Shown here piece after piece: positions 36,448-64,000 of a stretch of DNA of 64,000 nucleotides. Under the pieces are notes generated by a model that did not search any database, was not told the origin of the DNA, and saw only the letters and a list, made by a program, of their open reading frames with translations. Origin of the DNA: an uncultured Planctomycetota bacterium (GTDB lineage Bacteria > Planctomycetota > Planctomycetia > Isosphaerales > Isosphaeraceae); contig CAWJTV010000020.1 of assembly GCA_963845755.1 (NCBI GenBank), forward strand, positions 576,001 to 640,000. The letters are read 5' to 3'. A program made the position numbers and the translations under genes. Numbering within the stretch: the stretch's first letter is position 1; each line of letters begins with the position of its first letter.

Positions 36448-36469
36448 TAACCTTAAGGGAAAGTACCTC

Positions 36470-39800: not shown

Positions 39801-40919
39801 GTCGGCGGTAGCCGGCAGCTCGGGTTGCTCAAGGGACACCGCGGCTCGGTCCGGCAGGTCGCGTTCTCGCCGGATGGCGGCTCGCTCGCCACAACCGGTC
39901 AGGACCGGACGGTCAAACTCTGGAACTTGACGACGCGCCGGCAGACGGCACGGGCCACGCTGAAAGGCGACCTCACGCCCGTCTGGTCCGTCACCTACTC
40001 GCCCGATGGCAAGACCCTCGCCGTCGCCGACGGACACGACGCCCCCGGCACGGTCACGCTCTGGGAGGTCGCGACCCGCAGAGTGAAGGCGACGCTCGAT
40101 GGGCACGAGCGGGGTGTCGCCACGGTCGTCTTCTCCCCGGACGGCACCCTGGTGGCTTCAGGGAGCTGGGACAGCACGATCCGGATCTGGGACGCGAGGA
40201 CCGGTGAACAGCTCCACGAGCTGGCAGGACTCAATGGTGTCACCGAGCTGGCGTTCTCGCCCGACGGCCGCCTCCTGGCATCCGCCGGCGAAGGGAAGAT
40301 CGTCACACTCTGGGACGTGGACACCGGCGCCGAAGAGTCCCGGCTCACCGGCTTCCGCTGGACCGTGCAATGCGTCGCGTTCTCGCCCGACGGCAAGCTC
40401 CTGGTGACCGGCGGAGGTGCCCTGAACAACCAGCCCGGCGGCCAGGGTGAACTGAAGCTCTGGGACACGGCTGCCTGGTCGGTGGTCCGGGCGCTCGAGG
40501 GGCACACGCGGGCGATTCTGTCCGCGACCTTTACGCCCGACGGTACGGGACTGGCCACCGGCGGCCTGGACGAGACGATCCGCCTCTGGGACGTGAATTC
40601 AGGACGGCACCGGCTCACCCTGGGCGGCCTCTCAAATTGCGTCCAGTCGCTCGCCTTCTCGCGCGACGGCCGGGTACTCGCCTGGTCCGGGCGCGGCGAT
40701 GGGCTGGTGTCGCTCCGCGATGCCACGACCGGCGCCGAGCTCGCCCGACTGGTCGGCCACAGCGCCGTGGTGCGCGGGATCGCGTTCGCCCCAGACGGCT
40801 CCGGCCTGGCCACCGGTGGCGCCGACCGAACCATCAAACTCTGGGACCTGCCCGCGTATGAGCCGTCCCTATCTCTGTCCGCGAAGCCTCGAGGGAATTC
40901 CTTGGGAGGTTCGAGATGA
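36871..40919 (+). CDS. M56 family (BlaR1-like) membrane metallopeptidase fused to about 21 WD40 repeats (frameshift near 37450)
   Basis: TM helices; VLLHELAHVRRGD, REYACDD; 21 repeats of the GH..V..LAFSPDG...LWD type counted by eye. Confidence 0.92.
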
Positions 40920-43956: not shown

Positions 43957-45658
43957 TCTGCCGCTGCCGTGCTGGTCTGCTGGTCCTGGTCGCATCGGCT
44001 TCGCTTGCAATGGGACGTTCACCCGCAGCCGCGGACGACGGCCGCCGACCGGAGCCGGGCGCGAATCCGACCGACCGCGAGGCCACCCAGGATATTATGT
44101 TCCTCACCGACGCCCGGCCCATCTTCATCCGGCTGCGGTTGGGTGCCGGGGGTAAAGCGTTCCGCTCAGCCTGGATCGATGCCGTCAAGGCGATCCACAC
44201 CTACCTCGATCGCGACGGTGACGGCACCCTGACGCGGCAAGAGGCAGATCGTGGCGCTTTGCCCGATATGGTGCGATCCGCCACGGGCGGCGCGGCGGCG
44301 CTGCCACGTGCCGACCTCGACACCAACCCGAAAGACGGCAAGGTCTCCCTGGAAGAATTGGCCGATGTCCTGCGCCCCGCCCTCGGCCCATTCCGCGTAC
44401 AGGTCGGCCGCCTGGCGATCGATCGCAACGATGCCCTGTTCAACCACCTCGATCGCGACAAGGACGGCACACTCACCAAGGACGAGCTTGCCGCCGCCGT
44501 CTCGTCGCTCCACCGCTTCGATCTCGACGACAACGAGTTGATCGACCCGAACGAGCTGGAACCCTTCAGCAATCCGATCGCGGCACTCACCCAGGACCAG
44601 ACCCGGCGGGGAAAATACTCACCCGTCCCCGCGGTCATCGAGCTCTCGTCCGACGACCCCTCGTTCCGTCCCGTGCGACTCCTGCTCAAGAAGTACGACA
44701 ACGGGACGGGCGATAGTGCAACCGCCGGCGACAACCGGCTCAGCGCCGGCGAATTCGGGATCGGCGCGAAGGACTTCGTGACGGCCGACACCGACAGCGA
44801 CGGCGAGCTCGATAGCGAGGAGCTGCGCCGGTACCTCGGCCGGGTTGGACCCGACCTGGAGCTGGTCGTCAAGCTCTCCGGCAATGGGGCTTCGGCCGCG
44901 ACGACCATCGAGGCGACCGGATCGGGCACCCATCCCATGTTACCCCCGGGGGTCCACGTTCATCGGCTTTCCGAGGCCGACATCGAGATCGCCGTCGGCG
45001 AGGTCAGCCTCGAGTTCCACGCCGACGGCGGCGAGCAAGCCGCCGATTTCGCCAAGAGCTACTACGCCGGCCAGTTCCAGGCCGCCGACAAGGACAACAA
45101 CAAGTACCTCGAGAAGTCGGAAGTGAAGGACCATGGCCCGTTCGTCTCGCTCTTCGACATGATGGACCGTGACGGTGATGGGAAGATCTATATGAAGGAG
45201 GTCGACGAATTCGTCGACCGCCAGTCGAACGCCGGCGCAGTCAGATGGTCCTGTCCGTCGCCGACCAGGGTCGGGCGATCTTTGCCATCGTCGATCTGAA
45301 CCACGACCGCCATCTGGGCGTACGCGAGATCCGCGGTGCAGTCGCGCGGGTGTCGTCGTGGGATCGCAACGGAGACGGCCTAATACGCTCCGACGAGATC
45401 CCGCACCACTACGAGCTCTCGATCGGACGGGGCCAGATCACGGCCGTCGGCATGTCCTCGTTCCGTTCCCCGGTCATGGCATCCCCCTCCGCAACGCCGA
45501 CCGCCGAAGGCCCGAAGTGGTTCCTCAAGATGGACCGGAACCGCGACGGCGACATCTCCCGGCGTGAGTTCCTCGGCCCCCGCGCCGCTTTCGAGCGACT
45601 CGACGCCGATGGCGACGGCCTGATCACTTCCAAGGAAGCCGCCATGCCGAAGAAGTGA
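43953..45658 (+). CDS. exported multi-EF-hand protein (frameshift near 45240)
   Basis: signal peptide; about 10 DxD/NxDG-type loops (DRDGDG, DRDKDG, DTDSDG, DRNGDG, DRNRDG, DADGDG). Confidence 0.88.
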
Positions 45659-45852: not shown

Positions 45853-46746
45853 ATGACGATAGCGAATCCAGGTGATCAGCCGGACCGCAGATGCGATCAG
45901 CGATCTCCCGCCACAAGACGGTCGTTCCTGGCAATGATGACGGCGCTCATCGGTCCCGCCGCGTCCGCCCAGGACGACTCGGAGGGCCGCCGCAAGTCGA
46001 GCGCGCGCCTGGAGGCGATGCGGCGGTTGGTGAAGGAGGTCAAGGTCTGCGAAGTCACAGAGGGGAAGCCGGGACCGCCGCTGGCGCTCCGACCGGATCC
46101 GCTGCTTCGCTATACGAACCCCACCCTGCGTGTGATCGACGGGACCCTCTGGGCCTGGGGCGAGCGCGGACGGCCGACCGCAGTTCTGAAGCTGGGATTC
46201 ATCAGACAGGAGGGTGATCCGAGCCATTGGCGATTTCGCGTCAACGTGCTGTCGCCGAAGCCGATCGAGGTCGAGTTCCCCGATGGCCCGACCTGGACCT
46301 CGCGAACGCCTGGGCTGGAGCTACGGCCGCTGCCCAACGCGCCGGCGCCGACCGGCTCGGCGGCTCAGCGTCTCGCCCAGGCCAAAGCCATGGCCCGGCG
46401 GTTCTCGGCCAGTGCGAAACCTCTCAATCAGAGCGGCCGGACCCAGTTCCGGCTGCTCACTCAGCCGATCGCTCGATATAGTGACCAGGCAGCCGGTCTC
46501 CTCGACGGGGTGTTTTTCAGTTTCGTCTACACGAACAACCCATCCGTTCTCCTCGTGCTCGAGACCTGGTCGGAGGGCGCCGGAGTGAGCACCTGGCGTT
46601 ACGCCTTGGTCAGGCAGGGCGCAGGCGAGTACTCCGCTCTCCTCGACGGCAAACCGGTCTGGAGCGTGCCGGCCGCCGGCCCACCGGCTGATGCCGGATT
46701 GTTCATCGTACGACAAATGTCCGCAAGCCCAGCGGAACAAGATTGA
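45853..46746 (+). CDS. uncharacterised exported protein family, paralog P1 (Tat-like signal)
   Basis: TRRSFL; DGTLWAWGERGRP, PNAPAP...RLAQ, FRLLTQPIARY, DGVFF..V...P.VLL.LE. Confidence 0.8.
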   Translation: MTIANPGDQPDRRCDQRSPATRRSFLAMMTALIGPAASAQDDSEGRRKSSARLEAMRRLVKEVKVCEVTEGKPGPPLALRPDPLLRYTNPTLRVIDGTLWAWGERGRPTAVLKLGFIRQEGDPSHWRFRVNVLSPKPIEVEFPDGPTWTSRTPGLELRPLPNAPAPTGSAAQRLAQAKAMARRFSASAKPLNQSGRTQFRLLTQPIARYSDQAAGLLDGVFFSFVYTNNPSVLLVLETWSEGAGVSTWRYALVRQGAGEYSALLDGKPVWSVPAAGPPADAGLFIVRQMSASPAEQD

Positions 46747-46868
46747 CCGAATCGAGCCGACGTGGAAGGCTGGAGGGCTACAGGCCCGCACCCGACCACC
46801 TCCCAGGTGATCGACCAAGACTCCCCTGACCCCGAACGGCTCCGACACATATCCCAGGAGATGCCTCT

Positions 46869-47753
46869 ATGGAGCGAGCGATCGGAGATGATCGACGGCA
46901 CCTCACCCTCGAGGAGCCATGCTCCGCCACGAGGCGGTCGTTCCTGGCCATGGTGGCGGCCCTCATAGGCCCCGCTGCGTCCGCCCAGGAAGAGGTCGAC
47001 GACCGCGACCAAGCAACGCGCCTGGAGGCGTTGCGGCGGGTGGCGAAGGGGCTCAAGGTGTGCGAGGTCAGAGAGGGGAAGCCGGGCCCGCCGCTGGCGC
47101 TGCGGCCCGAGCCGTTCCTGCGCTTCAGTTCTCCCGTCTGGAAGGTGGTCGATGGCGCGCTGTGGGGTTGGGGCGAGCGTGGGCGGCCTTCCGTACTCAT
47201 GAAGGTGGTACGCCGGGGACCGAGGCGCGATCAGTTGCACTGGCACGCCAACGTGTCCGTGTTGTCGCCGAGACGGGTGGAAGTTGAGTTTCGCGATGGT
47301 GTGAGATGGTCGTCCCGATTGCCCGGGCTCGAATTGCGGTCCTTCCCCGATGCACCCGCGCCGGCGGACTCGGCGGCCCATCGCTTCATTCAGGCCAAGG
47401 AGATTGCCCGGCGGATCTCGATCAGCACGCAGGTCCCCAATCCGATCGGCCGGGTCCAGCTTCGGTTGCTGCCCCGACCGATGGATCGCTATAGCGACCC
47501 AAAGGTCGGTCTTTGGGACGGAGTGTTTTTCTGTTTCGTCAATGAGAGCTCACCGGCGGTTCACCTGATGCTCGAGGCGTGGTCCGAGGGTGTGGGGGAG
47601 CGCACCTGGCGTTACCTCTTCGCGAGGCAGGGCGCAGGCGAGGGGATCGCCTTCCTCGACGGCAAACAGCTCTGGAGCATGCCGGCCGTCCACTTACCGG
47701 CCAATACGGACTTGTACATGGGGCGACCGCTGCCCGATAGCGCCGCGGAATGA
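46869..47753 (+). CDS. same family, paralog P2 (Tat-like signal; close relative of P1)
   Basis: TRRSFL; EGKPGPPLALRP identical to P1; LRLLPRPMDRY, DGVFF. Confidence 0.8.
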   Translation: MERAIGDDRRHLTLEEPCSATRRSFLAMVAALIGPAASAQEEVDDRDQATRLEALRRVAKGLKVCEVREGKPGPPLALRPEPFLRFSSPVWKVVDGALWGWGERGRPSVLMKVVRRGPRRDQLHWHANVSVLSPRRVEVEFRDGVRWSSRLPGLELRSFPDAPAPADSAAHRFIQAKEIARRISISTQVPNPIGRVQLRLLPRPMDRYSDPKVGLWDGVFFCFVNESSPAVHLMLEAWSEGVGERTWRYLFARQGAGEGIAFLDGKQLWSMPAVHLPANTDLYMGRPLPDSAAE

Positions 47754-48059
47754 TGACGACTTCGCGTTAGTCCTGAGGAATCCGCGAGGATCGCCTCTCC
47801 AGTCGGGTTCGCGCCACGCTGGCGGATGTCCCACGGTCGTGCGACGGACGACTCGGCGCGGTATGCTCAGAGTGACCCGGAAGTGGCGGTTTTCCCGTCC
47901 GACTCAGTTGGACGAGAAAGCGGTCAGGTGTCGTTTTTCGGATGGTTTCGGGGACGATTCCAGGGACGGAACGACGACTCCAGACCAAGCCGGGCCGCAA
48001 CCTCAGCCTGTTTTCGAGATTATCGTCGTTTCGAAAGTGATTTGAGCGAGGGCGCGGAA

Positions 48060-49046
48060 TCAGTCGCGTGCCGAGGGGGCCTGGGGCTTCCGCGCCAGGA
48101 AATACGTATCCTCGGGCGTGGGGACCGCTTTGAACAGATGCGTCCAGACGTCCTGCCGGCCGAGTCGGAGCGTCGGCTCGGCGCGGGTGAGCGGCCCCGC
48201 GGCATACTTCCAGACCGGCGCACTTCCGCCACGTCTCTGCGCCTCGAGGACGAGCAGTACCTCGGGATTGGTGCCGTTGGCGAACGCGAAGACCGCTCCG
48301 TCCATCAGGCCCGATTCCGCATCCGCGTAGCGGTCGATCGGATGAGAGACCGGGCGAAGCGTGTAGTCCTGGGAATTGATGTTGTAGAATTCGGCGCCGA
48401 GAATCGCTTGGCCAGATCTCTCATCTGCCGCAGCCGCTCGGCTTCACCCGCGGCGGGGGCCGGAGCGTCGGGAAACTCGCGGAACGCGAGCCCGCCCTTC
48501 ACGGGTGCCCATCGCAGCCGGCCGTCCGGACGGGGCGGGAACAAGTCCGAGTAAGTCGTGTCGAAATGCTCACCGCCTTCGACCTCGATCGGTCCGATCG
48601 CGAGCGACGTGAACTCGATGCCGCCAGACCGGGCCAAATGCCTTGTTTTGTGGATAGAGCTCGATGGCGAGCACGGCGATCGGCCGGCCCGAAGACCTCC
48701 AGGCCCAGAGCGTGCCGTCGCTGTTCTCGCGCGTCGGGTCGGTCCATCGGTAGAGCGGGTCACGCGTCAGGGCGGCCGGATTTTTTTTGCTGCCGCCGTC
48801 GATCGTAGCGGCCTGAAACGAGGCGGCGATCTGCTTCATCTCGGCGAGGCGCTGAGCTCGGGCGTCCTCCCTCGCGACCGGCGAACTGGGAGCCTGGGCT
48901 GCCGCCCACTGGCCGGCAGCCCCGAGCGCGATGAGCAGCGCGGCGAGCGCGGGCAAACGTCCGGACAGCTGCGGCGCGTCGAGACGCATGGCGGACATAC
49001 TCCGGTGACGAGATGAGCCATGTCCGGTCGGACTGATGTCGTTCAT
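48060..49046 (-). CDS. same family, paralog P3 (frameshifts near 48615 and 48395)
   Basis: PLYRWTDPTR..DGTLWAWRSSGRP; PDAPAPA...RLRQMRDLAKRF; DGAVFAFANGTNPEVLLVLEA, spread over three frames. Confidence 0.8.
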
Positions 49047-49142
49047 GGTTTGGCTTTCTTCGTCGGTGTGAGTTCGCGGGCCGAGAAGCGCCGGGGTACC
49101 AGGATGTCGTAGTAAAGGTCACCGGGGGTTGCGGGTCGTCCC

Positions 49143-49192
49143 GCGTCGATCAAGAGGAGAGCCTCAGGGTTGGTGCCGTTGGCACAGACGAA
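49143..49192 (-). pseudogene. orphan fragment of another family paralog
   Basis: reads FVCANGTNPEALLLIDA right after the P4 stop; differs from P4 at synonymous sites. Confidence 0.7.
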
Positions 49193-49193
49193 G

Positions 49194-50057
49194 TCACGGC
49201 ACGCCCTGATCGCGCCGCATCAATCCGAAGAAGTAGGTTTCCCCCGAGAGATAACCATACTTGTTCGGTGAGGTCCACACATCCTTCCGGTCGAGCTTGA
49301 GTGTCGGCGCAGCCGTGGTCAGGGTCGCGGCGGCGTACGTCCACTTCGGCGGACCGTTGCCTCGCCGACTCGCTTCGATCAAGAGCAAGGCCTCTGGATT
49401 GGTTCCATTGGCGAACATGAAGATCGCACCGTCGATCAGGCCGGAGTCGGCGTCTTTGTAACGGTCGATCGGGTGGGGGAGTAGTCGAAGCGGGTAGTGT
49501 TGTGAGGTGACGTCCCAGAACTCGGTCGCCGAGAACCGCTTGGCCAGTTCGTGCATCTGCCGGAGCCGAGCCGCTTCGCCGGCAGCGGGGGCCGGTGCGC
49601 CGGGAATCTCCTGGAAGATAACTCCGGGCTTTTGGGGTGTCCATCTCAACCTGTCATCGGCCGACTCGACGAGCCCGGTCGAGAGCGAGATGAACTCGAA
49701 CGACCATTGCGAAAGGTTCTCGAGATTGAGCTCGATCGCCAAGGCCGCGACCGGCCGGCCCGAAGACCGCCAGACCCACAAGGAGCCGTCGGGCTTCGCT
49801 CGGGTCGGATCGGTCCAGCGGTGGAGCGGCTCGCGCTCTAACGGGACGGGGATTTTCTTGTCTCCCTCGATCGCGACGGTCTGGAATGCCTTGACGGTGC
49901 GCCTCATTTCTTCGATCCGTTTGGCACTCACGTCGTTCTTGACGGCAGGTGTAGCCGGGTCCTGAGCGCCCGCGTTGCGTTCGGAGCCACCCAGTGCGAT
50001 GGCTAACGCCGTGAACGCTAAGGCCCACTGGAACACACGGGCGAGATGAGGATACAT
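49194..50057 (-). CDS. same family, paralog P4
   Basis: signal peptide; PLHRWTDPTR..DGSLWVWRSSGRP; LRLLPHPIDRY; DGAIFMFANGTNPEALLLIEA. Confidence 0.85.
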   Translation of the reverse strand: MYPHLARVFQWALAFTALAIALGGSERNAGAQDPATPAVKNDVSAKRIEEMRRTVKAFQTVAIEGDKKIPVPLEREPLHRWTDPTRAKPDGSLWVWRSSGRPVAALAIELNLENLSQWSFEFISLSTGLVESADDRLRWTPQKPGVIFQEIPGAPAPAAGEAARLRQMHELAKRFSATEFWDVTSQHYPLRLLPHPIDRYKDADSGLIDGAIFMFANGTNPEALLLIEASRRGNGPPKWTYAAATLTTAAPTLKLDRKDVWTSPNKYGYLSGETYFFGLMRRDQGVP

Positions 50058-50124
50058 GGCGATCGGTCTCCGTAAGAATGAGAGGGCGAGCGCACCCGCG
50101 AGACTGGTCGAGATCGGCCGACAT

Positions 50125-52636
50125 TCATGCCAGGCCGATACGACGGCGCCAGACCCATTCGATCGTGAGCAGGCCGATCAGCAGTACCAGGAGCCATGCC
50201 TGACTCCAGGCGGGAGTCATCTTGACCGACGATGGCCCGATGATCCGCGGCAGCCGCTCGATCATCGCCGTGAGGTCTTTCGCCCCGTGCAGCACGCTGC
50301 CTCCGGATTGACCGGCGATCCGGCGCAGCAGGTCGTGGTCGGGGAGTGGGTTCTGCTGCTCGGACGGGTCGTCCAGGACCTGCACATCGAGCGACGTACT
50401 ATCAACCTGGGTGTTATTCTCATAGGCCGTCAACTCGATCCGCAAGCCCTGAGTCAGAGTGACCCCGGGTGCGACCGATTTGGCATCGGCGATCGGAAGT
50501 GTCGCGCTGTACGACGATTCCGACGTCTGGCGGACGAGGTCGAACTCTTCGCTCCAGGGGAGCAGACGCCCACCGGCTCCGGCCGGCTTTGGCACCTCCT
50601 GGGGACGTAGTAGCGGCGAGTCATCCGACGTGGCATCGCTCGCCGATCTCGGCTCGACCGTCACGGCCACGCGGTACTCGAGCGTCGGCGCCGCGTTCTC
50701 GTCGAACGTCCGGCGCGGAGCACGATCGGCTCGCCGGGCCGATAGAGGAGCTTGTCCGCCTGGGCCAGCAGGCGCCGGCGACCGATTGACGAATTCTCGG
50801 TCAGCCAGTAGACGACATTGCGCCAGAACTTCTTGTAGTATCGCGCGTCCGGCCCACCCCACGACTGGGTGAACTCGCTAGCCCATCGGCGCATGATGGC
50901 CGTGGTCATGGCCATGGTGCGACCGCGGCCATAGGGCTGGACAACGATCGCCGGCGTCCCTTCGCCATTCGCGCCGGCCGAATCCGTCCGGGCCAGCACG
51001 TCGGCCCCCTCTTTGACCCGGCCGACCCGATTGTTCCCCAGGAAGTTGGGCAAGGTCGTGAGCAACGATCGATTCTGCGCCTCGTCCGACGTGATGTGCC
51101 AGATCGGATGCGTCGATTCCGTCGTGATCGGATGGACCGTCGTGATCGTTTCCGCCCAGTCACGAGCGGCGGGGATGAGATCGACGGGGAGCATTCTGCT
51201 GACCGGAGTCTCATTCCACTGGCCGGAGGCAAAACTGTTGGGACCCCCGACCATACAGAGGCCGCCCCCGCGCCGGCCGATCCATTCGTCGATCCAGGCC
51301 AGGTGCTGGTCGCTGAGGGCTTCACGTGGGACGTTGCTCAGGATGATCGCGTCATAGGCGAACAGCTCCGACGGCGTTTCGGGGAGCCCGCGCCCGCGCT
51401 CGTCGCTCCGCACCAGCACCGAGAAATCGCCGCCGGGTCCGCCGGGCATGACGGCCGTGCACTCCACATCCGGATCGGCCATCAGCGCCTCCTGGAGCGA
51501 GGTGTAAGCCCCGCGCACCGGATTGCCCGCGAGCCTCGCGACGAGTTGCTGCATCACGTAGGTGTCGGTCGCTCCTTCCAGATAGAGCACGCGGATCTTG
51601 GTATGGTCGATGGCCAGGTCGGCTCCGAACGCGTTGTTCGAGGTCGACACTTCGCCCGGTTGCGGCTCGATTCGCGCCTCGATCCGAAGATCCTGGTCAC
51701 CCGCCTCGAAAGCCAGCGCGGTACTGTGCCAGGCCATCGCTGAGGACGACTGGAGTACGCGCGAGCTCCACGTCCGGCCTGCCGTCGGCCCCGACCGCCA
51801 TCATCTTCAGCTCGCCGCGTTTGCCCTGGAAACCGTAGCTCCTCACGAAGACCTGCGAAAGGATCCTGGAGAACTTGCGCGCCTGGGTCTGGCGCGACCA
51901 TGCTGACGATGGCGATGTCGCCGCCGACGTCCTCGTCGCCGACCGGCAGGACGTGGAGCGGTACCTTCATCCGGCCATAGGCGTGGGCGATGGCGTCGGC
52001 CTTGTCGAGATCGCGCGCGCGGCCGTCGGAGAAAACCACGACGGCCTGGGGGGGTACCTGGCCGAACCGATCCGCGAGACCTTCGAGCGAGCTACTCAGG
52101 AGCGTGTCGGAATCGGTCGGCGCCGGCGCCGGCTCGGCGGGACGCGGTGGCTCGGCGGCAAGCACGGCACCGGGCGCGCCTCGAGGAATGGGCGTCGAAT
52201 CCGGTTTCCGCCAGAAACCGTCGTTCACGGCGGCGAGGCGGCTCCCGAAGCGGAATGCACTGACCTGGGCCCCGGTGCGGGAGTCAAGCGACTTGTCAAC
52301 GTTGCGGATCGTTTCCAGCACCTGGTCCCAGCGGGTTGGTCCCTTGCCGATCGCCATGCTCTGCGAACTATCCAGGAGGTAGAACACTTTCGGGCGCTCC
52401 ACCGTCCCCGGAGTTTCGTCAACCCTGACGGGATTGAACATGATCAGGGCGAGGATTGCCAGGATCGCCAGTCGAACGACCAGCAGTCCGACACGGCGGG
52501 CCGGCGCGATCGGACGCCCCGACGCCCAGCGCCACAGCGCGAAAACCGCCACGGTCCCCAGGGCCAGCGCCAGGATCAGGCCGACGGAATAGGGTGTTGC
52601 CCAATGAATGCTCGACTTCACGTTCATGGATGCCAT
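50125..52636 (-). CDS. membrane protein with vWA-like and GATase1-like (DUF1355-type) domains (several frameshifts)
   Basis: N-terminal TMs; LLDSSQSM (MIDAS-like), VVVFSDGR; YDAIILSNV, GGGLCMVGGPNSF, YGRGRTMAM; C-terminal TM LLTIEWVWRRRIGLA. Confidence 0.8.
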
Positions 52637-52739
52637 ACTCTGGGTAGGGTGCTCTGCGAGCACCGAAGAGGGCCAGTCGCGCGGATCGGTGCTCGCAGAG
52701 CCCCCTACGCGCTCGCGTGCAATGCGACCGTGAGGCGCT

Positions 52740-52772
52740 CGTACGGCGAGGTCGAGGGCCCCTCGCCGTACG
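52740..52772. other. perfect 12-bp intergenic hairpin
   Basis: CGTACGGCGAGG-N9-CCTCGCCGTACG inside the operon spacer; no U-tract. Confidence 0.45.
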
Positions 52773-52820
52773 CTCGAAATCGGGCGGTTGTTACCAGACC
52801 ATTCCCGGAGTCCCGCCACT

Positions 52821-55800
52821 TCACTTGTTTGTCCCCCCTCCGGAGAGCACCTGGAAATAGCGTTCGACCAGCTCTTTGAATTCGGGTGGTGTCGCCTCGT
52901 CTCGGGCCGATACCATGTCCTTCAGGATCAGGTCCTGGATCTTGTCCTGAATCTGTCTCGCGACGGATGAAAGGGCGATCGCATAGCCTCCGGGGGCGAA
53001 TCGGTCGTAGTGGAAATCCGCGCCCAGCGCCAGCCGCCAGATTCGAGCATTGCGGTCAGTGCGGCGGCGGCGTTGGTCAATCCGGCTTTCTCCAGGTCCC
53101 GGATCAATGCCGTCGCCATCCGGTGCCACTCCTTGATATCCGCCTCGAGCTTGACCGTCTTGAGTTTGTCTGTCAGCTCGGCCAGTCGCTTGTCGAACTC
53201 CACGAGTGCGGCGAGCTCCGGCGCGACGATGCCCCGATGGAGCACGTCGAGCTGGCGGGCAAGCAGCTCCAGGATTCGCGCCAGCTCCTTCGCATCGCGA
53301 CGAGCCTCCGGCTTCTGGCCGCCGAGATGGAGCTCGCCGATGCGCTCGACGCGCTCGACGATCTGGGTGACATCGCCTTCCTCGATCATCTCGCGAATCC
53401 GATCTCTCGTCGAGCCTTCGGCCCGAAGGCTGGCGTCCTTCAGCCACTGCTCGAGGGTCCTGGCGGCCTCCTCCAACCGTTCGATTCGCTCGGCGTCGGT
53501 CAGCGCATCCCAGCCGCTCCCCCCGCGCTGACCCCGGCCGCCGGGACCCGCGTCTCCCGGGCCGTCTTTGCCGGACGAGCCGTCATGGCCCTTTTCGCCT
53601 TTCTCGCCCTGACCGGATGGCGCCTCCTGGCGGCCGGGCTCTGGACCCGCGCCGGGATCCTCGCCGGGCATTCCGCCGAATTGTCCCTCGCGCTCGGCCA
53701 GCTCATCGGCCAGGTCGCGGGCCATGGCCAGCTCCCGTGCGACGTCGCGCGCCAGCTCGCCCTTGACCTGCCGGGCGAGCTCGTGGAGCTGCGCGGCGCC
53801 CGACTTGGTGGTCTCCGTCGCCTCTTTCGTATTGCCGCGGGACAGGGCCCCTGAGGCTTTCTCCGCCGTCTCAGCCGCTTTGGTCATCCGGACCTTCGCC
53901 AGGTCCGATGCGGCTTCGAGCTTCTTCATTTTCTCTTCCAACTCACGGGCCCTATCGACGATCTTTTCCTGCCGTTCCCGGGCCTCGCGACGAGGGTCCT
54001 TCCCGGGCTCTCCGTCCTCCTCTCCGTCCTCCTTATCGCCCTTCTCGCCGGTCTGTCCCCGGCCTTGACCGGCCTTCCCGGCGCCCTTCTGTCCCTTCGC
54101 CTCCTGTTTTTTCTTCGGCTCCTCCGCCTTCTTCTCGGCAGGCTCTTCCTCCTTCTTGGCCGCCTCGTCCTCCGACTCCGCCGGTCCGTCTGACTTCCCT
54201 TCGGCGGCCTCCTGTTCGATCATCAACCCGGAGAGCGTGGCATAGACGAAGTCTTCTTCCTGGGCCAGCTCTTCGATTCGCTCGGCGATCTCTTCGGCTT
54301 CTTCCGCGTCCTTCTTGGGCTTGCGGATCTTCTGGGCCTGCTGGCGGTCGAATTGGCGCACTTTCTGGCTGGCCTGGGTATCCTGGCCGATGAGAACCTG
54401 CAGCGTGAGGCGCGCTTCGATGAGGTGCCGCAGGGCATCCCCCATGTGGCCAGGAGCCCGCATGTTCTGGCCATGATCGAGTGCTGCTACCGCCGCCAGC
54501 ATGGATTCCTCGGCCGCGTGCAGGGGCTCGACCCGCTGACCGACGATCCCCTCGACGCCCTCGGTGAACTCGCGGGTCATCTGGACCAGCATCTCCTCGA
54601 AGCCGGCGATCTTGAGCGGGTCCTCCGCCATGGTCTTATCGGTCGGCTTATGCCTGGCCAGCCGATTGGCCCGGTTCAGGTTGAAACGCTGGCGGGCGAT
54701 CAATTCGGCCAGTGTGGCGAATTCATCTTCCGCCTCCATTCCGGCGTCGGAAGAATCGGCTAGCTTGTACTCGCGTTTGAACGGGCGGATGTCGATGTAG
54801 CGCAGGTCGGTCTCGGTCCGCTTCGCGCCGGCGGGGTAGTTGTCCTCGGCAAACGCGTAGTAGGTCAGGCTGTCCGTCGACTTCGCGGCAAGTTTCTCCA
54901 TCATGAGCATCTCCTGGATTGCCGCGGTGGTCACGGAAGTTGTCGTCTCCTTTCCGAAGTCCTTGAGGATCAGTGTCTGCTCGTCCCCATTGTTGAACTG
55001 GAACACGATTCCGGCCCTAGTCAGTCCAAAGTCGTCACCCACGCGGACGCGGTTCAAGACCTCGGCGACGGGATGGACTTCCAGGGCCTCGTCGGGCTGC
55101 TCGAAGGTCACGCGCGGCGGGCGATCCTCGAGGACCTCGATCTTGTACCGCGTTTTCGGCAACGCCCGACCATCCGGAGTGATCGCATCGATCTGATAAA
55201 TTGAGCTCTTGGTCAACTTGAGCCCGGCGGTGTGGGCGATGCTGTTTGACCCAACCTTGAGCTCGAGCGGAATGACCCGCGGCGCGGGCGGCTCTTTGCC
55301 CTTCCGCGGGCGGACCGATGGATCGGTCATGACCAAGGATGCCTTGGCCGGCGGGGAATCGAACGCGATCTGGAACGTCGCATCGGTCCCCTCGACGACG
55401 CGCAGATCGCCGCCCTTCACCATGCTGGGCTTGATACCCGTGTATGAGGGCGGAGCCAGGTCCACCTCGAAGGACTTGATCGCCAGCGGCATGCGGACCC
55501 CGATCCGGAACGTCGGGCTCGATATCGAGCCGGCGACCACGCGGTATTCCAGCGACTCCTTGATCTTCTCCAGTCTTCGCGCGTGATTCGGGCCGTCGCC
55601 ACGGTCCGGGGCGTCGAGCCGAGTGGCTTTCCAGTCCACGTCCGCCTGCTTTTCCGGGCGGGTGAAGAGGACAACATCGCGCGTGAGCCGCCCGGCGATG
55701 GCCACCGTAATCGGCAGGATTTTCGAGGGGAGGTCCTGCCCCGCGTCCGAACGCGTGGACGAGACGGCATCCGGTTTGAGTTGCCCGCCCCGTGCCACGA

Positions 55801-56441
55801 CGATCGGGACGTCATCTCCCTGTTCGACCGTGAGATTCCCCGGAGCAACGGTCAAGGTCGTGTATGGTCGACGGCTCAGGAGTGCCCGCTGGAGCGCAAT
55901 GCGCCACTCCCGATCGGTCGTCGTGGCGATGATCAGCATGAGTGCCGGCAGTGCCGCCAGCGCCGCGATGGCCCAGATGCGACGCCAGGGCACGATCCGA
56001 TCCAGCGGGAGCGGCTCCGCCTGGATTTCCGTATCTTCCTCCAGCGCGTCCACGAGACTGGGAGTGACGCCCTCGGCATGAAGGCTCGTCTCGGTTAGAC
56101 CGGCATACTGGACGACGGTCCGGATTCGCTGGCCGAGCTGAGGGAAGCGGCTCTCGATCTCGGTGGCGGTTCGCCGCCTGGTCCACCATCGCAACGGCGA
56201 GATGACTCGCGACCAGAACATGATGAGCGTCGCGACCAGGACCCCGACGAGTCCGACCGCTCGCGTGTTCCAGGGCAATTCCAGGCGGTAATCGGCCAAG
56301 GTCAGGAGGGCCAAGCCGAGTGCACAGGCCAGGAACGACCAGCCCAGACCCTCCCGGACCTGGTATCGACGCAACGAGGTCCAGATGTGTTGGAAGCGCG
56401 AGGAACGTCAGGTCCCTCAGTTCGGAAGTCGCGAGGCTCAT
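52821..56441 (-). CDS. large membrane-anchored protein with Ig-like and coiled-coil regions (DUF4175-like; frameshifts near both ends)
   Basis: N-terminal TMs, IESRFPQLGQRIRT, PPSYTG, EDRPPRV, DDFGL, IDIRPFKREY, long helical tail ending PPEFKELVERYFQVLS. Confidence 0.75.
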
Positions 56442-56463
56442 GATCGTCCCTTTCAAATACCCC

Positions 56464-56632
56464 TCACCACAGAGGCACAGAGAGCACTAAGAAGGCAAGA
56501 AAACGATTCATTCTGATCTCGGCGTTGATGGAGGACGCATCGCCTCCCCACCCGAGGGAAGTGATACCCGATGGGTTCACGCGAGTACGACGCGTGCCGG
56601 TCTTCTCTGTGTTCTCTGTGACTCTGTGGTGA
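56464..56632. repeat. REP-like inverted repeat doublet (CACAGAG type)
   Basis: TCACCACAGAGGCACAGAGAGCAC ... GTGTTCTCTGTGACTCTGTGGTGA, between operon genes. Confidence 0.7.
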
Positions 56633-56686
56633 ATGTTTTCAAACATATTCACACCGGTCTTAAGTCCCTGGAGCAAGACAAAGCAA

Positions 56687-58637
56687 CTATGACGCCGTCC
56701 GGTTCGCGAGGAAGTTCTCCACCAAGAGTAGGCCGACTAGAGTCAGAGCGAGCCAGGGCCAGATCTCGTCGTTCCGCAATCGATCGTCGGCGATCCTGCG
56801 CGTTCCCGGCTGGGTAGCGTCCTGGGGAGCCGGGCCGGGCAGTTGGAAGCCATATCGCTCCGCGAACTCCTTGGGGGTGCAACGGGCCGTTTCGGATTCC
56901 AGCGGGTCCGGGTTGAAGACGTGAACGAGTCCTTCGGACTCGACCACGCCCGGTTTCTGTTCATCCGCGACGATCACCTGACGGATCGGGCCCCCTTCAG
57001 CCAGTCCGGAGACGTAGGAGACCATCTGGTGGAGCATGGGCAGGTACATCCGACCGCGCGGCCAGTTGCTCCAGGCCCGGTCGCATGCGGAGGTGAACCA
57101 GACGACCTTGCCCCGTCCCTTGGTCCGCTCCAGGAGTGCGGGCTCACCGCCGCGGAACCAGGCCAGCACACGGGAATCCGGGCCGGGCTTGATCCGTGTG
57201 ATCGTGGAAAACGCCGAACGGTGAAGGTCGCCGTGCTCGGGATCGGCGAATGGCTGGAAGATCGGATGTCGCCCCTCCCATCGCTCGAGCCGCCAGGGCA
57301 GTTCGGTCGCAGTGGCGGGCCCGAGGATCTCGCCGACGTCGAGGCCGGCCGCGGCGAGCTCGCGCGTCCCTTCGGCTCGGACGCGGTCGCCGGTAAACAC
57401 GAGCAGCCCCCCTCCACGCTCGACGAACTCGCCCAGGCGTCGCGTCGCAGCCGCGCCCAGGCTCTCGACGTTCGCCAGGATGACGGCGCCTGTCCGGTCC
57501 AGGTCGGGCAGGCTGGCGTCTCCGGCGAGATCGACCGTTGCGACGTCGAATGGTGTACGGGTAAACCGCTCGCCGGGTGGCGCGAGCCGTAGCGCAGCCT
57601 GGAGGAAATAGGTCTCCGACTCGTACGAGGCCCGGCCGGGGTCCCCGTCCACGATGAGTACCCGGGCTGGGGCGGCGACCGAGAGGGCCAGGAAGCGCCG
57701 GTCGTCGAACGGTAACTCATCGCCGATGGACGCCTCGACGTGGCCACGCCAGAGCCCCTCGGACAGTTTCTCGATCGGGAACTCGAGCCTCGCGGTCGCG
57801 CCGCCCTCCAGGTCGATCGTTCGCTCCAGGTCGTGCTTCTGGTCGCCGGCCTCGATGTGGAGACGGACCGGACACTTGGCGACGGGCAGCGGCGACGCGT
57901 TGAACACGTCCGTCGTGATCGAGGCCGACTCGCCCGGCCGGACGGTCTTCGGTGAGATCCTGACGGACGTCACGGCGACGTTCCTGGGGAATGAGCGTCC
58001 GACGTCATGCAAATGGACCTCAGCATCCGCGGGGAAGAGCATCGATTCCCCGCGATCGAGCCCCGAACGCTGGAGGTCCGTCAGGATATGCAGCTCCTTG
58101 ACGGCTTTCCGCGAGCGGATCAGGATGTCGCGCGCCCAGGCCATCGCGGCGACGTAATCCGTGCCGCAGGCCGTCGGCTCGATCGTGGCGGAACGCAACT
58201 CGGCCGGCCGCGCGAGTGGGTGAATCGTTCGGTCGAACGTGCCGGCTTCCAGTTGCGTGTCCTGACCGGCTCGCGCAACGATTGCACGCACCTCCGCCAG
58301 AGCCTGCTCGATGGGCCGTGTACCGCCTTGAAGTCCCATGCTGGCCGAGCGGTCGAGCAGCACGACGACCAGGCGCTCTCCTGGCGCTGTCTCGGTCGCG
58401 AGCATGTAAGGCCGGGCGAACAACGCGGCGATCAGGGCGATACACGCCAGCCGCAACGCCAGAAGCAGCCAGCGCCTCAGCCGTCGCCGTCGCGCGTTGT
58501 CCTTGAGCACGATCTTGAGAAACTGGAGCGTGCCCAGGTCGAACTGGGCGTGCCCGCGAGCGAAACATCAGGTGGATGATGATCGGGATCGCCAGGGCGC
58601 CCAGGGCGCCGAGCATCCCGAACTGAATGAATTGCAT
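56687..58637 (-). CDS. BatA and vWA domain membrane protein (frameshift near 58545)
   Basis: ALAIPIIIHLM, WLLLALRL...FARP (BatA); LLDRSASM (MIDAS), ILTDLQ; C-terminal TM EIWPWL. Confidence 0.88.
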
Positions 58638-58716
58638 GGTGCCTCGGATGGAAACGGGAACTCAAACTTAGACTCGCTCGTGCCTTGTTCCGTTCGCTGC
58701 TGGCGGCTCGTCGCCG

Positions 58717-59541
58717 TCATTCACCGACGATCGGCTTGCTAAAGGTCCAGTAGATGTCGTCACGCCCCCTGGAGTAACCGCCCGGATGCGACCAGATCTC
58801 CTTGCCCTCGAAATCCACGTGAATCTCCGCGATTGCGATCCTTGCGAAGCCGTAATGCCATGCGAAATCGGATGGGCCTTCACGGCGTGCTTCCAGTAGT
58901 AACACGAGTTCCGGGTTCAATCCATAGCAGATACTGAACATACACGCATCGATCAGGCCGGAAGCCGTGTCCGCATAGCGGTGAACCGGCTGGGGAAGAA
59001 CCCGTAGCTCGTAACGCTCCTTCGAGGGTTGATTGTTCGGCTTGAAGTACTCATGAACCTTGATCTGTCGGATCAGCTCCTTCATCTGCCTCAAGCGTTT
59101 CGTCGCATCTCCAGCCGGGACGGGGGCCTTGGGGAACTTCTGCATCTTGACTCCTGGGTCCGATGGTCCCCACGTGCCGAACCCCGGAACTGTGGCGGAG
59201 ATCGGTCCGGGCGCCAACGATGTCATCTCGGCGATCCATCGCAACCCCTCGGTAGGCGATCGATCCCTCGACAATGTCAAGAGGGCGGCCGGCCGACCCG
59301 ACGGGCCCCAGGCCCAGACCGTCCCGTCGGAATATTGACGTGCCGGGTCGTCGAAACGGTAGACCGGTTCGGCCAACCGTTCCAATTTGACAGGGACGCC
59401 CCGAGCGGTCTTCTCGACCACGATGCTTTCGGCGATCGCCCGCATTGCGACCAGCCGCGCGGCTGGAGTGCTGGAGCTTTGCGGACTGTCTCCCGTCGCC
59501 AGGAGGCCGATGATCAGGATCGGTGAAGCCCGTAAGAACAT
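58717..59541 (-). CDS. same family, paralog P5, located between DUF58 and BatA
   Basis: own RBS and ATG at 59541; signal peptide; DGTVWAWGPSGRP, RLRQMKEL, LRVLPQPVHRY, GLNPELVLLLEAR. Confidence 0.82.
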   Translation of the reverse strand: MFLRASPILIIGLLATGDSPQSSSTPAARLVAMRAIAESIVVEKTARGVPVKLERLAEPVYRFDDPARQYSDGTVWAWGPSGRPAALLTLSRDRSPTEGLRWIAEMTSLAPGPISATVPGFGTWGPSDPGVKMQKFPKAPVPAGDATKRLRQMKELIRQIKVHEYFKPNNQPSKERYELRVLPQPVHRYADTASGLIDACMFSICYGLNPELVLLLEARREGPSDFAWHYGFARIAIAEIHVDFEGKEIWSHPGGYSRGRDDIYWTFSKPIVGE

Positions 59542-59558
59542 GACTACTCTCCCTCGGC

Positions 59559-60453
59559 TCAAAAGGTCTTCGCGCCGGACGAGGTAATCCAGCAGCGCCC
59601 GGTCCGGCGGATCCTGCGTGGTCAGTTCGATGCGGTCGATGGCGCGCTTGCGGCACTCGAGCTCGAGCGCCTGCCGCCAGTCGTCGACGGCCCGCCGATA
59701 CGCCTCGCGGACGCCCTCGGCCTGGGTGGTCAGCGTCTCGCCGCTCTCCAGGTCGCGGAAGCGGATGTGGCCGTCCACCGAGAGATCGCGCTCCCAGGGG
59801 TCCATGATGTGGAAGATGATCACTTCGTGGTTGCTATAGCGCAGGTGATCGAGGCCGCCGACGATCGGGGCGAGGTCGCCGAAGAGGTCGCTGAGGACCA
59901 CGACCATCCCGCGGCGCCTGGCGAACTCGGCCGCCTGATGCAGGGCGCGGTCGTTGTCGGCCGCGGGGCGGACCTCGGCGGCGGCGACCGTCGCGAGCAC
60001 CTCATCGAGCTGGGTCGGTTTCGCCCGGGGGGCCAGGTGGGCCGTCACCTTATCAGAGAACACGGTCAGGCCCACCGCGTCGCGCTGCTTGAGCGCCAGG
60101 TGCGCCAGCGCCGCCGCCAGGGATGCGGCGTAGTGCAGCTTGCTCCGGCCGGCGTTGGCGCAGCTCATCGAGGCACTGGCGTCGAGCAGCAAATAGAGGT
60201 TCAGGTTCGTGTCGGCGTCGTACTCCTTGATGTAAAGACGGTCGTGGCGCGCGTAGAGCTTCCAGTTCAGGTGCCGGAGGTCGTCGCCGGGCGTGTACTC
60301 GCGGTGCGAGGCAAACTCGACACTCAGCCCGAGGTACGGGCTGCGGTGCAGGCCGTGCATCGACCCCTCGACGATCGAGCGGGCGCGAAGCTCGATCGAC
60401 TCGAGTCGCGAGAAGAATACCGGGTCGATCAGGGTTCGGGGATCGAAGGGCAT
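59559..60453 (-). CDS. DUF58 domain protein
   Basis: GLHRSPYLGLSVEFASHREYTPGDDLRHLNWK, LLLDASASM, VVVLSDLF; true stop probably at 59559, masked by an indel. Confidence 0.92.
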
Positions 60454-60459
60454 CGGGGC

Positions 60460-61503
<1,044 letters not shown>

Positions 61504-61551
61504 CGGTCGCGGGCCTCTTTCGGTTGGGGTCTCATTCCAGTCGGTTTTTCT

Positions 61552-62414
61552 TCATCGCATCACGAATGACAGATACGGTCCTCGAGGATCCGCGACCTCG
61601 CCATAGGAGACCAGAGGTATGCTCCACACGGCCTTACCCCGATGGCTGACGCGCTGTTCCAGACTCGTCATTCGGGCCAGTCCGTACAGCCACTGGGGCC
61701 TGTCGTCGACCTGCGCGCTTCGATGAGCAGCCAGAGCTCCGGGTCGGTCCCCTGCACGAATGCAAACAACGAGCCGTCGATCAAAGGGGGCTCCGTGCCC
61801 TCGTACCGGAAGATCGGCTGAGTCATCAGGCGATTCTCTTGCTCGACGCCGTCTCGCCGTGTCTGACGGTTCGTAAACTCCTTGGCCAATTCACGCATCT
61901 GGCGGAGCCGTTGGGCGGCCGTCTCGCCGGGGGTCGGGGCATTCGGGATCGGCTTCATCTCGATTCCGGGACGAGACGTATTCCAGAGTTCTCGGCCGTC
62001 CTTCTCCGCGATGATCCTGTCTGTCGTGAGCGAGAGGTATTCGACCGCCTCGTGAGGCCCGGTGGTCGGCGAAAACCATCGATGTAAACACCAAACCACA
62101 TCGGGCCGACCCTTCGACGTCCATACGAAGACCGCTCCGTAGTTCTCGCCGACGAGTGGGTTCGTCCACTTCAGAACCGCATCGGACCTCAGCGCGAGCG
62201 GACGTCCATCCGACGCGTGGCGCATGACGTGGGACTCGGCCTCGTGTTTCGCGAAGGCGAGGAGATCGTCGGCGCGCGTCTTCCCATCCCCCGGCGGATC
62301 GGCCCGGAGCGTTACTCCCATAACCGGCAAGGACATGACGAGCATCGCGACTAGGCGCCGAGCTCGGACTATCCTCCGCGTCGCCTCACCCTCGCGGGTT
62401 CTCGGGTTTTCCAT
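61552..62414 (-). CDS. same family, paralog P6 (frameshift near 61712)
   Basis: GAVFVWTSKGRP, RLRQMRELAKEF, RLMTQPIFRY, DGSLFAFVQGTDPELWLLIEAR; C-terminus WLYGLARM...VWS in the next frame, stop at 61552. Confidence 0.82.
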
Positions 62415-62467
62415 CGGTCGTGGGCCTCTCGCGGTAACGACGGGGTTGGTGCGATTCGCCGCAGGGT

Positions 62468-63280
62468 TCAGGGTTCATACTTCGTGACGAAGAAGGGTTT
62501 GGAGGGGTCCAGGGCAGGGCCCCGGTTGGGGAGTTCCCAGGCGGCCTTGCCTCGATAGGAACATTTGACGGCGAAGATGGTCATCGGCGCCAGGGCATAC
62601 TGCCATTCCAACGCGTCTTTGCCCGGCCGTGCCTCGAGGAACAGGAAGACTTCGGGGTCGGTGCCGTAGACGAAGGCGAAGAGCGCGCCGTCGAGGATCC
62701 TGGTCCCCGACTTACCGTACCGGGAGATCGCCGTGGGGAGTAGCCGGAGTTCCGACCAACCCTTGCCACCGAAGTCGTCCGTGGCGCGGAAGCCATCGGC
62801 GAGGGCACGCATCTGGCGCGCTCGCCGCGCCTCCGAATCGGCCGGCTGGGGGGCGCCGGGAACCGGACGAAACTCGAGCCCCGGCATCGTGGGGGCCCAC
62901 CAGGTTCGCCCGTTCCGATTGGCCGAGAGGGGCACCGGCGATAACGACGAGAATTCGTGGATCCACAGGACCTGCGGATCTCGGGAATCTCTGAACACCT
63001 GCATCGCAACCTCGGGTCGGCCATGATCCCCGGTCCAGAGGAAGATTGCCCCATCCTCGAGGGTGTTCGTGTGCTGCTTGCCCAGGCGGAATGCCGGCGT
63101 TTCCTGAAGCCTGAGTTCGGCACCCGGATTGCCGCTCAGGGTGAGTTGATAACCTCGAACGGAATCCTTCATGACTTTCAGGCGCTCGGCGCCCGCGTCG
63201 GTCGCGTTCTCCCCGCGGGTCGGGGCCTGGGCAACGATCACAAGGATTAGACAGGCCGGAGTGAGGAGTGTCATGCTCAT
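62468..63280 (-). CDS. same family, paralog P7
   Basis: signal peptide; DGAIFLWTGDHGRP, LRLLPTAISRY, DGALFAFVYGTDPEVFLFLEAR. Confidence 0.85.
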   Translation of the reverse strand: MSMTLLTPACLILVIVAQAPTRGENATDAGAERLKVMKDSVRGYQLTLSGNPGAELRLQETPAFRLGKQHTNTLEDGAIFLWTGDHGRPEVAMQVFRDSRDPQVLWIHEFSSLSPVPLSANRNGRTWWAPTMPGLEFRPVPGAPQPADSEARRARQMRALADGFRATDDFGGKGWSELRLLPTAISRYGKSGTRILDGALFAFVYGTDPEVFLFLEARPGKDALEWQYALAPMTIFAVKCSYRGKAAWELPNRGPALDPSKPFFVTKYEP

Positions 63281-63310
63281 TCTCCCGTAGATTCGAGGTC
63301 CCCGGCCGAG

Positions 63311-63648
63311 TCAAGGTAAGTAAATTCGACTGTAGAAGGTCCGGAACGGGATGTCGCTGTTGCGTTGCGTCAAGCTCCAGACGGGTCGGCCCTTGTGCTC
63401 GGACTTGAGCGCCCAGCACGTCATCGGGGCGAAGGCGTATTGCCACACGAGGCCCTTCGCGGCCGGTCGTGCCTCGATGAACAGGAACGACTCGGGATCG
63501 GTCCCCAGGACGAAGGCAGACCCCTTCATGAACTTCAGGCGCTCCGCATTCTCGTTGGGCGTATCCTGCCGCCAGCCGGTACTCCGGCCGCCATTGCGGA
63601 CAGGAGCAGGAGGATCATTGGGTCTCGCAATGCTGATGCACTCGCCAT
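63311..63648 (-). pseudogene. same family, paralog P8 with a large internal deletion
   Basis: signal peptide and AERLKFMKGS joined directly to AFVLGTDPESFLFIEAR; about 160 codons missing relative to P7. Confidence 0.78.
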
Positions 63649-63709
63649 GATCGATCGCCTCCCTCCGACAGAACGACGGGTCCTTCATATTCGTGAGACG
63701 AGGGCCGGG

Positions 63710-64000
63710 TCAGGGCCGGTAGACGCAGTCGAAAAAGGGCTTGGATGGGTCCCAGCAGGGCTGCCGATCGGGGAGTTCCCAAACGGGCTTGCCTCGATAC
63801 TTGCCTTTGATCGCATAGACCGTCATGGGTGCCAGAGCATATTGCCACTCCGGTCCATCGTCGCCCGTCCGTGCCTCGAGGAACAGGAACACCTCGGGGT
63901 CGGTGCCCAGGACAAAAGCGAAGAGGGCCCCGTCGAGCACCCTGCTCTTGGGCTCGCCGTACCGGGCGATCGGAGTGGGGAGGAACCGCAGCTCCGACCA
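63710..64000 (-). CDS. same family, paralog P9 (5' part lies outside the window)
   Basis: SELRFLPTPIARY...DGALFAFVLGTDPEVFLFLEAR...WQYALAPMT. Confidence 0.82.
   Translation of the reverse strand, partial: WSELRFLPTPIARYGEPKSRVLDGALFAFVLGTDPEVFLFLEARTGDDGPEWQYALAPMTVYAIKGKYRGKPVWELPDRQPCWDPSKPFFDCVYRP

Follow-up and report, generated by a model that had tools for sequence, protein, structure and literature searches.

Why is a conserved operon for a MoxR ATPase and its vWA-domain partners interspersed with many divergent copies of a single exported protein? The question is raised by a stretch of 64,000 nucleotides (hereafter the window) from an uncultured planctomycete of the family Isosphaeraceae, in which the initial annotation had noticed at least nine such paralogues (P1-P9) placed around a MoxR/DUF58/vWA operon. 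All nine were recovered at their places by a listing of open reading frames (ORFs), by tblastn and by a profile built from six copies, and the neighbouring genes were confirmed by Pfam. Nine copies are indeed present in the window, yet the figure is an undercount, since 15 copies lie at the locus and 12 more are dispersed elsewhere in the 14.3-Mb genome (27 in the genome). We propose that the family proteins act as inducible periplasmic binding modules that give a membrane vWA complex its target range, a reading whose chances we regard as about even.

Linkage of the array to one MoxR locus

A conserved core of 11 genes (BlaI, an M56-WD40 sensor, DUF1549/1553, DUF1501, EF-hand, MoxR, DUF58, BatA-vWA, DUF4175-like, vWA-GATase and C13-like) recurs in four taxonomic families, with 1-20 genes of the array family per locus lying in any slot between the core genes. 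In relatives from the Isosphaeraceae the core is split into two convergent operons, while in the other families it mostly forms one co-directional run. The MoxR genes of these islands belong together: 25 island rows form one clade against 13 others (SH-like approximate likelihood ratio test, SH-aLRT 99), and of the 12-16 MoxR matches in each of five distant genomes, it is the single best one that has the array at its side, once across a contig break. Some BatA-like gene occurred in 37 of 40 genomes of the window's family; the 8 of them that are family-positive, and no others, carried the close subtype of BatA-vWA (E<=1e-70, the next best being 2e-42). Similarly, in a sample of 150 genomes of the class, drawn without regard to the array family, the island-type C13-like gene (E<=2e-79; next 8e-41) occurred in exactly 7 genomes, all of them multi-copy. 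The locus was present in 7/7 multi-copy class genomes, the 3 single-copy genomes had no island-type C13-like gene, and no class genome carried the island without the family. Finally, a one-motif scan of genome contigs returned 80 loci, 37 of which showed a core gene (27/32 multi-copy loci and 10/48 others) and 3 of which had moxR within the 10-kb flanks. The co-localisation with MoxR operons that had been expected therefore holds for the arrays, which sit at one MoxR clade in four families, but not for the many copies found away from moxR.

A rival explanation has to be weighed at this point, namely that the paralogues act alone as protective binders, be it as scavengers, inhibitors of enzymes or immunity-like decoys, co-induced by BlaI with the MoxR/vWA machine but having no contact with it. 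Dispersed copies with their own promoter-operator box (described below) and lone copies in island-free genomes would fit it, as would the old, patchily kept subfamilies, which resemble immunity arrays. Nonetheless, the family is present in every class genome with the island, and its copies are interleaved with the core genes in every slot across four families. Moreover, no toxin-like gene recurred among the neighbour clusters, PADLOC gave no match for the family, and the weak partial cystatin-like and SciW-like structural matches, at a Z of about 4, are at background level. We therefore consider protective binding the main rival, possible but less probable than the reading proposed above.

Two related gene arrangements were observed besides the core. 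In the other families an optional member of the locus (L071, L078, L090, L102 and related loci) encodes an exported DUF1583/DUF1581 protein of 1,900 amino acids (aa) with laminin-G and 3-keto-disaccharide-hydrolase-like parts. In addition, a second C13-like-moxR-DUF58-BatA-DUF4175-vWA/GATase operon subtype is found in family-positive genomes (L114, L115, L116, L118-L120); at L115, DUF58 and BatA are separated by an insert of 8 kb, in which the box lies before a further BatA paralogue.

The copies at the locus and their export

Intact copies in the window are P1 (45853..46746, plus strand), P2 (46869..47753, plus), P4 (49194..50057, minus), P5 (58717..59541, minus) and P7 (62468..63280, minus). 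P1 and P2 are 57% identical and both bear a Tat-like signal, P4 served for the structure model, and P5 lies between DUF58 and BatA with a start of its own. P3 (48060..48989, minus) is interrupted by two frame breaks and P6 (61552..62414, minus) by one near its 3' end. P8 (63311..63648, minus) is an internally deleted remnant in which the signal peptide is joined to the last quarter of the domain, and a 19-codon remnant of a further copy lies at 49136..49192 (minus). Only the 3' part of P9 (63710..64000, minus) is included, its start lying beyond the window end; it is intact in the genome. Past the window the operon continues at 640.6-647.3 kb of the same contig (C20), with six more copies and the gene of a C13-like pseudo-peptidase. 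The array start is adjoined by a stretch (L001:10744-20000, corresponding to C20:647.7-657 kb) with a gene for a 603-aa exported protein without Pfam match and, on the other strand, a very long, multiply broken Gly/Asn-rich repeat gene.

Frame breaks were also seen in core genes (M56, DUF1549/53, EF-hand and vWA-GATase) when compared with intact homologues; thus the breaks are probably uncorrected assembly indels. An apparent fusion of DUF58 to P5 was rejected on similar grounds: one base is lost just before the DUF58 stop in the window, and the stop is present in 5/5 relatives examined.

The signal peptides reported for the array were recovered as N-terminal hydrophobic segments in P1-P8, with a Tat-like TRRSFL in P1 and P2. 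Family-wide, 129 of 147 representatives carry an N-terminal hydrophobic Sec-like segment, 2 a lipobox and 1 a Tat-like motif. This bears on the narrow version of the initial annotation, in which the paralogues were clients folded directly by MoxR/DUF58 before export. The common operon with moxR and the Tat-like signals of P1 and P2 would speak for such a role, but a Tat-like motif in 1/147 representatives against a Sec-like segment in 129/147, and the existence of lone copies without the island MoxR locus, speak against it. In fact, direct clienthood is topologically very improbable because the family is exported while neither MoxR nor DUF58 has a signal segment.

The protein family and its predicted structure

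The copies align end to end, a point on which the initial annotation had let its case depend, and the 13 locus paralogues aligned are 31-74% identical (median 37%). The ordered motif set was borne out: in 150 sequences, 90-100% conservation was found at G62, W67, G71, R72 and P73, at R135 and Q138, at L161, R162, P167, R170 and Y171, at D180, G181, F184, T190, P192 and E199, and at W210 and W232. No near-invariant His or Cys occurs in the family, and the second of its two repeats is better conserved than the first. As had been suspected, no named domain was found to cover it, searches of Pfam, NCBIfam, PADLOC, PHROGs and PDB sequences having given no match and the ESM Atlas only unnamed clusters rich in Planctomycetota.

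An AlphaFold model of P4 (predicted local distance difference test, pLDDT, 94.9; predicted template modelling score, pTM, 0.91) gave a confident domain with two internal repeats. The two halves are homologous (hhalign 98.9%, E 3.5e-17), each consisting of a helix followed by a beta-meander, and a single half is predicted to fold alone (pLDDT 95.3). Several conserved residues occupy equivalent places in both repeats. The Foldseek comparison that had been suggested along with structure prediction returned no match at E<=1e-3 (PDB and BFVD for the whole domain, PDB for one repeat). A wider structure search (VIA) gave background-level Z, the best values being 7.2 (root-mean-square deviation 2.2, 78 residues) and 5.6. 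Blank fold searches are no proof of a new fold; the modelled two-repeat fold is apparently unmatched.

These searches also bear on the possibility that the proteins are periplasmic enzymes or carbohydrate-processing modules that act on different substrates and owe their maturation or positioning to the machine. Among the best structural rows are glycoside hydrolase beta-sandwich domains and a PL26 lyase (Z 5.2-7.2), a conserved polar cluster is present (R135, Q138, R162, R170, D180, E193 and E199), and the DUF1583 giant with its 3-keto-disaccharide-hydrolase-like part accompanies the family at some loci. However, the structural matches span 78-117 of 258 residues at Z values typical of background, and conserved residues that are equivalent in both repeats are what would be expected of structural positions. 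An enzymatic role thus appears unlikely.

A profile search recovered 3,769 representatives at 50% identity clustering. The family has so far been seen only in Planctomycetota: for the 80 loci of the motif scan, Planctomycetota taxa appear in 77 of the titles, and the other 3 give no phylum. Its distribution is patchy, with 8/40 same-family genomes (4-43 matches each) and 10/150 class genomes positive; in a phylum-wide sample 2/300 other genomes were positive, a weak range estimate given that only 7 candidates were scored per genome. The copy-number variation anticipated for the array is evident in the 1-20 genes per locus and the up to 43 matches per genome. Cultured species with members are Paludisphaera borealis (P0087) and Stieleria tagensis (L093). 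No paper on the family, the locus, the box or the BlaIR-MoxR combination was found in searches of an incomplete literature library.

Longer homologues are rare. P0269 is a kinase-hydrophobic segment-family fusion, in which the family domain follows the kinase and the hydrophobic segment, the usual position of a sensor, and P0121 is a tandem double. The third, P0270 (1,281 aa), was discarded as a fusion, since it looks like two genes read through. The architecture of the family can be set against another proposal, in which the MoxR/vWA complex would build a fibre or surface layer from the paralogues as interchangeable structural subunits. The array does contain many co-oriented, closely spaced exported paralogues, and MoxR ATPases are described as assisting complex assembly (PMC3893208). 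But single copies also have a repressor box of their own, a fusion joins one domain to a kinase, and each half folds as a complete unit, so that we judge such subunits to be quite improbable.

Evolution of the paralogues

The paralogues cluster by subfamily across genomes, not by genome; grouping the 11 intact locus copies of the window genome together was rejected by the approximately unbiased (AU) test (p-AU 1e-45). The slot between DUF58 and BatA was filled by two unrelated subfamilies (p-AU 4e-5, for a group named after the tree was seen), some subfamilies have retained their slot, and some dispersed copies are sister to array copies. The underlying tree was made by FastTree and carries a long-branch warning; remnants and frameshifted copies with a longest piece of <130 profile columns were left out of it, and the AU tests left out all frameshifted pieces.

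The ratio of nonsynonymous to synonymous substitution (dN/dS) of the family was 0.15-0.47 (20 pairs); MoxR and DUF58 gave 0.04-0.05, and the remaining core genes 0.09-0.32. When 17 pairs were pooled, every ten-column block after the N-terminal linker had a dN/dS <=0.36 by pairwise counting. A hypervariable repertoire, of the kind known from antigenic variation or diversity-generating retroelements (DGRs), was therefore rejected, because purifying selection acts on the pairs and no mature-region block shows a patch with excess amino-acid change. The variable repertoire of the initial annotation consequently survives as gain, loss and slot replacement of old subfamilies, but not as hypervariation.

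Traces of this turnover are preserved in the window. The moxR leader and first codons (61475-61530) are repeated at the start of P6 (62380-62436, minus strand) with 82% identity over 55 nucleotides (nt), which, judged by the sequence, is a trace of the placement of a copy in front of moxR. Together with the remnants (P8 and 49136-49192), this repeat indicates that duplication and deletion are ongoing. On such sequence evidence, the array is a birth-and-death repertoire of old, purifying-selected subfamilies with putatively fixed specificities, which are gained, lost and swapped between slots. Four dispersed copies (contigs C3, C8, C12 and C42) share a unit of 1.1 kb with 87-90% DNA identity and fairly sharp ends (L002:4835-5965, L003:4147-5277, L005:4624-5706 and L013:4566-5799). 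The units have their own TTGACA-type promoter and no BlaI-type box, and two of them have an ISL3 transposase or a group II intron reverse transcriptase nearby. Possibly, the unit is a recently mobilised cassette.

A shared promoter-operator box

The initial annotation overlooked two features by which the operons are united, a box of BlaI type and the M56-WD40 sensor. The box before blaI (36398..36452, plus strand) consists of TTGACA, 17 nt and GATATT, then TGTAGTCATGCGAC and TCCGTA. It overlaps the promoter elements, contains an inverted repeat and recurs at the array start outside the window (C20:647364 and C20:646266, minus strand), whose promoter shares it with that of blaI. A profile trained only on relatives found 7 strong sites in the genome versus 1 weak match in the reversed control; these seven lie at blaI, two array promoters, two dispersed copies and two other genes. 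The latter two (G000:C11:810393, minus, and G000:C20:269636, plus) encode, by eye, single exported WD40 propellers and are possibly further members of the regulon.

Across five relatives, 23 exact box sites were found and 0 control sites, of which 14 lie before family genes, 5 before blaI, 1 before a C13-like gene and 1 before a BatA paralogue, with 2 not assigned. With a slightly looser pattern the box was found in four more family-positive genomes and in 0/6 family-negative ones, two of which are congeners of a positive; the tally over relatives is thus 9/9 against 0/6. In one relative (G320) the blaI operon is on a separate contig and the box is still kept at both halves. Distant lineages have a different box, AGAC-N5-GTCT. 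A profile from 16 sites of 20 blaI genes placed a site of >=15 bits before 11/45 lone copies versus 8/695 other ORFs, and several of these 8 share the site with a family gene or start the core operon. A short form of the box gave 7 versus 6 control matches and was discarded as not distinguishable; the longer pattern and the profile do separate from background. A mycobacterial-type BlaI motif had 2 sites in the genome and 0 on the window contig, and a generic promoter/terminator scan stayed at chance level.

Because the box is present in 9/9 family-positive and 0/6 family-negative relatives, both convergent operons look like one BlaI regulon. By analogy with autoregulation in the BlaI family, as reported in PMC8457756 and PMC13492132, we infer that the window BlaI would be the binder of the box.

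Proposed mechanism and its weight

In the mechanism that we favour, the WD40 propeller of the M56 protease would read an external signal from outside the membrane, upon which the protease would inactivate BlaI, as extrapolated from the BlaIR family. Removal of BlaI would free the boxed promoters of the blaI-M56-DUF1549/53-DUF1501-EF-hand operon, of some dispersed family genes and of the array-C13-like-moxR-DUF58-BatA-DUF4175-vWA/GATase operon. From the cytoplasm, MoxR and DUF58 may then act on three membrane-anchored proteins (BatA, DUF4175-like and vWA-GATase), the vWA domains of which are predicted to face the periplasm. The array proteins would be exported modules that bind without catalysis and consist of two alpha+beta repeats. 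A fixed specificity would belong to each old subfamily, with the better-conserved second repeat as a putative common docking face, and the set of subfamilies retained would determine what the system can capture or handle. A binding-module character is suggested by the lack of a near-invariant His or Cys, the homologous halves, the kinase fusion P0269 and the dN/dS of 0.15-0.47. What the analysis shows is the family itself, its export signals, its linkage to one MoxR clade in a conserved locus, the common box, the purifying selection and the turnover of subfamilies; that this BlaI is in control, that the proteins bind and that they touch the vWA complex are the inferred parts of this model.

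A more specific version may also be formulated, in which the paralogues form a set of adaptors that dock by the second repeat on the vWA/GATase complex, carry subfamily-specific targets and are released by the MoxR/DUF58 motor acting across the membrane, the whole being switched by a WD40-sensing BlaIR pair. We put this version forward tentatively. If it is true, the domain would be a new fold, its bearers would be the first class of partners defined for a Bat-type MoxR machine, and the system as a whole would be an analogue, in the bacterial envelope, of modular substrate receptors.

Several observations weigh against the proposal that the paralogues serve the vWA complex as binding modules. 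Twelve of the 27 copies are unlinked to moxR (none of the 12 dispersed copies has one of the 15 moxR genes within 10 kb), and a strong box stands at only 2 of those 12. In three of the 10 family-positive class genomes the family is represented by a lone copy and the island is missing, and the sister C13-moxR-DUF58-BatA operon has no family gene within the stretches of 5-20 kb inspected (L114-L116, L118-L120). Because the genomes are related and the island possibly moves as a single block, the co-occurrence counts overstate independence; in addition, G423, one of the seven class genomes, may have supplied a locus to the C13 profile. No match of the fold is good enough to suggest a ligand (best Z 7.2 over 78 residues), and the kinase fusion P0269 is a single sequence.

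Core genes of the locus

The plus-strand operon opens with blaI (36470..36874), a regulator of the penicillinase-repressor family (Pfam Penicillinase_R E 2.4e-26). It is followed by the gene of an M56 membrane protease of BlaR type, with a HELAH motif and with WD40 propellers at the C-terminus (36871..40919, with a single frame break near 37.4 kb); the extracellular transpeptidase sensor domain of the canonical beta-lactam BlaR1 was not found in this C-terminal WD40 part. Next come a DUF1549/DUF1553 (PSCyt2-PSD1) protein with a CxxCH motif (40950..42556, one frame break), a DUF1501 protein with a Tat-like signal (42592..43956) and an EF-hand protein (43953..45657, one frame break). On the minus strand lie MoxR (60460..61503; AAA_3, E 4.8e-61, and AAA_lid_2), with intact Walker A and B motifs (GVPGLGKT and LLADEINR), and, 6 nt after moxR, the vWA-like DUF58 (59559..60453, DASASM, Pfam DUF58 E 1.1e-46). 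They are joined there by a BatA-type protein with two transmembrane (TM) segments and a vWA domain (56687..58637, one frame break) whose metal-ion-dependent adhesion site (MIDAS) reads DRSASM. It scored 25.1 bits against a cutoff of 23.05 for TIGR02226, with Pfam BatA below cutoff on both frameshift pieces. The remaining members are a DUF4175-like membrane protein (52821..56441, with a break near the 3' end) and a membrane-anchored vWA (DSSQSM MIDAS)-GATase1-like protein (50125..52636, with frame breaks).

The C13-like neighbour has an invariant G95-H96 and no conserved Cys in 35 sequences, so that the clan CD His-Cys dyad is incomplete; its matches to C13 and metacaspase are weak (E 0.018 and 0.11). 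This caspase-like pseudo-peptidase may be a scaffold. Divergently from blaI, an ECF-type sigma factor region followed by WD40 repeats (32602-35690, minus strand) is probably one broken gene. A close blaI-M56 paralogue is found at G000:C32:60564-62013 (L142), with 64% BlaI identity and a different upstream sequence, and it could cross-talk with the box.

Comparison with known systems

Operons of the Bat-type MoxR/DUF58/vWA kind occur widely and have been tied to the integrity of the envelope, and few of their partners and signals are known. The closest comparators of the core are the MoxR-proper (MRP)/Bat-type operons, such as those of Rhizobium leguminosarum RL3499 and Francisella FTL_2000, which, as described in PMC3893208, share with the window locus an AAA_3 MoxR, an adjacent DUF58, TM-anchored MIDAS vWA proteins and a DUF4175-like membrane protein. 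MRP members have been linked there to membrane integrity and stress tolerance. The present locus differs from these operons by its extra C13-like, DUF1549/53, DUF1501 and EF-hand genes, its BlaIR pair and its 1-20 exported family copies. The Bacteroides bat operon proper includes the TPR and SH3 genes batC, batD and batE. No genes of that type were found among the scanned locus ORFs, which sets the locus apart from it.

The regulatory pair resembles BlaIR systems such as staphylococcal BlaI/BlaR1 and C. difficile CenIR (PMC13492132), where a Penicillinase_R gene likewise lies upstream of an M56 HExxH protease gene with a box at its own promoter. It differs in the WD40 propeller sensor and in a predicted regulon made up of a MoxR/vWA machine and a paralogue repertoire, and no beta-lactamase was seen in the locus. 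A transpeptidase domain is carried by about 6% of M56 proteins, and for most BlaIR systems the stimulus or the output is not known, according to PMC13492132. This locus combines a predicted operator with a defined regulon and with a family of variable exported proteins, and a blaI knockout should switch on the whole set.

A third likeness is to the MoxR-vWA ternary conflict systems, which also combine a MoxR-vWA core with variable accessory genes in planctomycetes (PMC7159879). Of the components named in that source, VMAP, iSTAND, FtsH and the vWA-beta-propeller third component were not among the scanned locus genes. Moreover, the window MoxR matches AAA_3 (E 5e-61) far better than bpMoxR (E 9e-11), and the variable parts are here exported and under purifying selection; DUF58 is absent from the main text of PMC7159879. 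The MoxR-proper/Bat-like core and a BlaIR switch without a transpeptidase are therefore of known kinds; the protein family, with its apparently unmatched two-repeat fold and thousands of members, is new.

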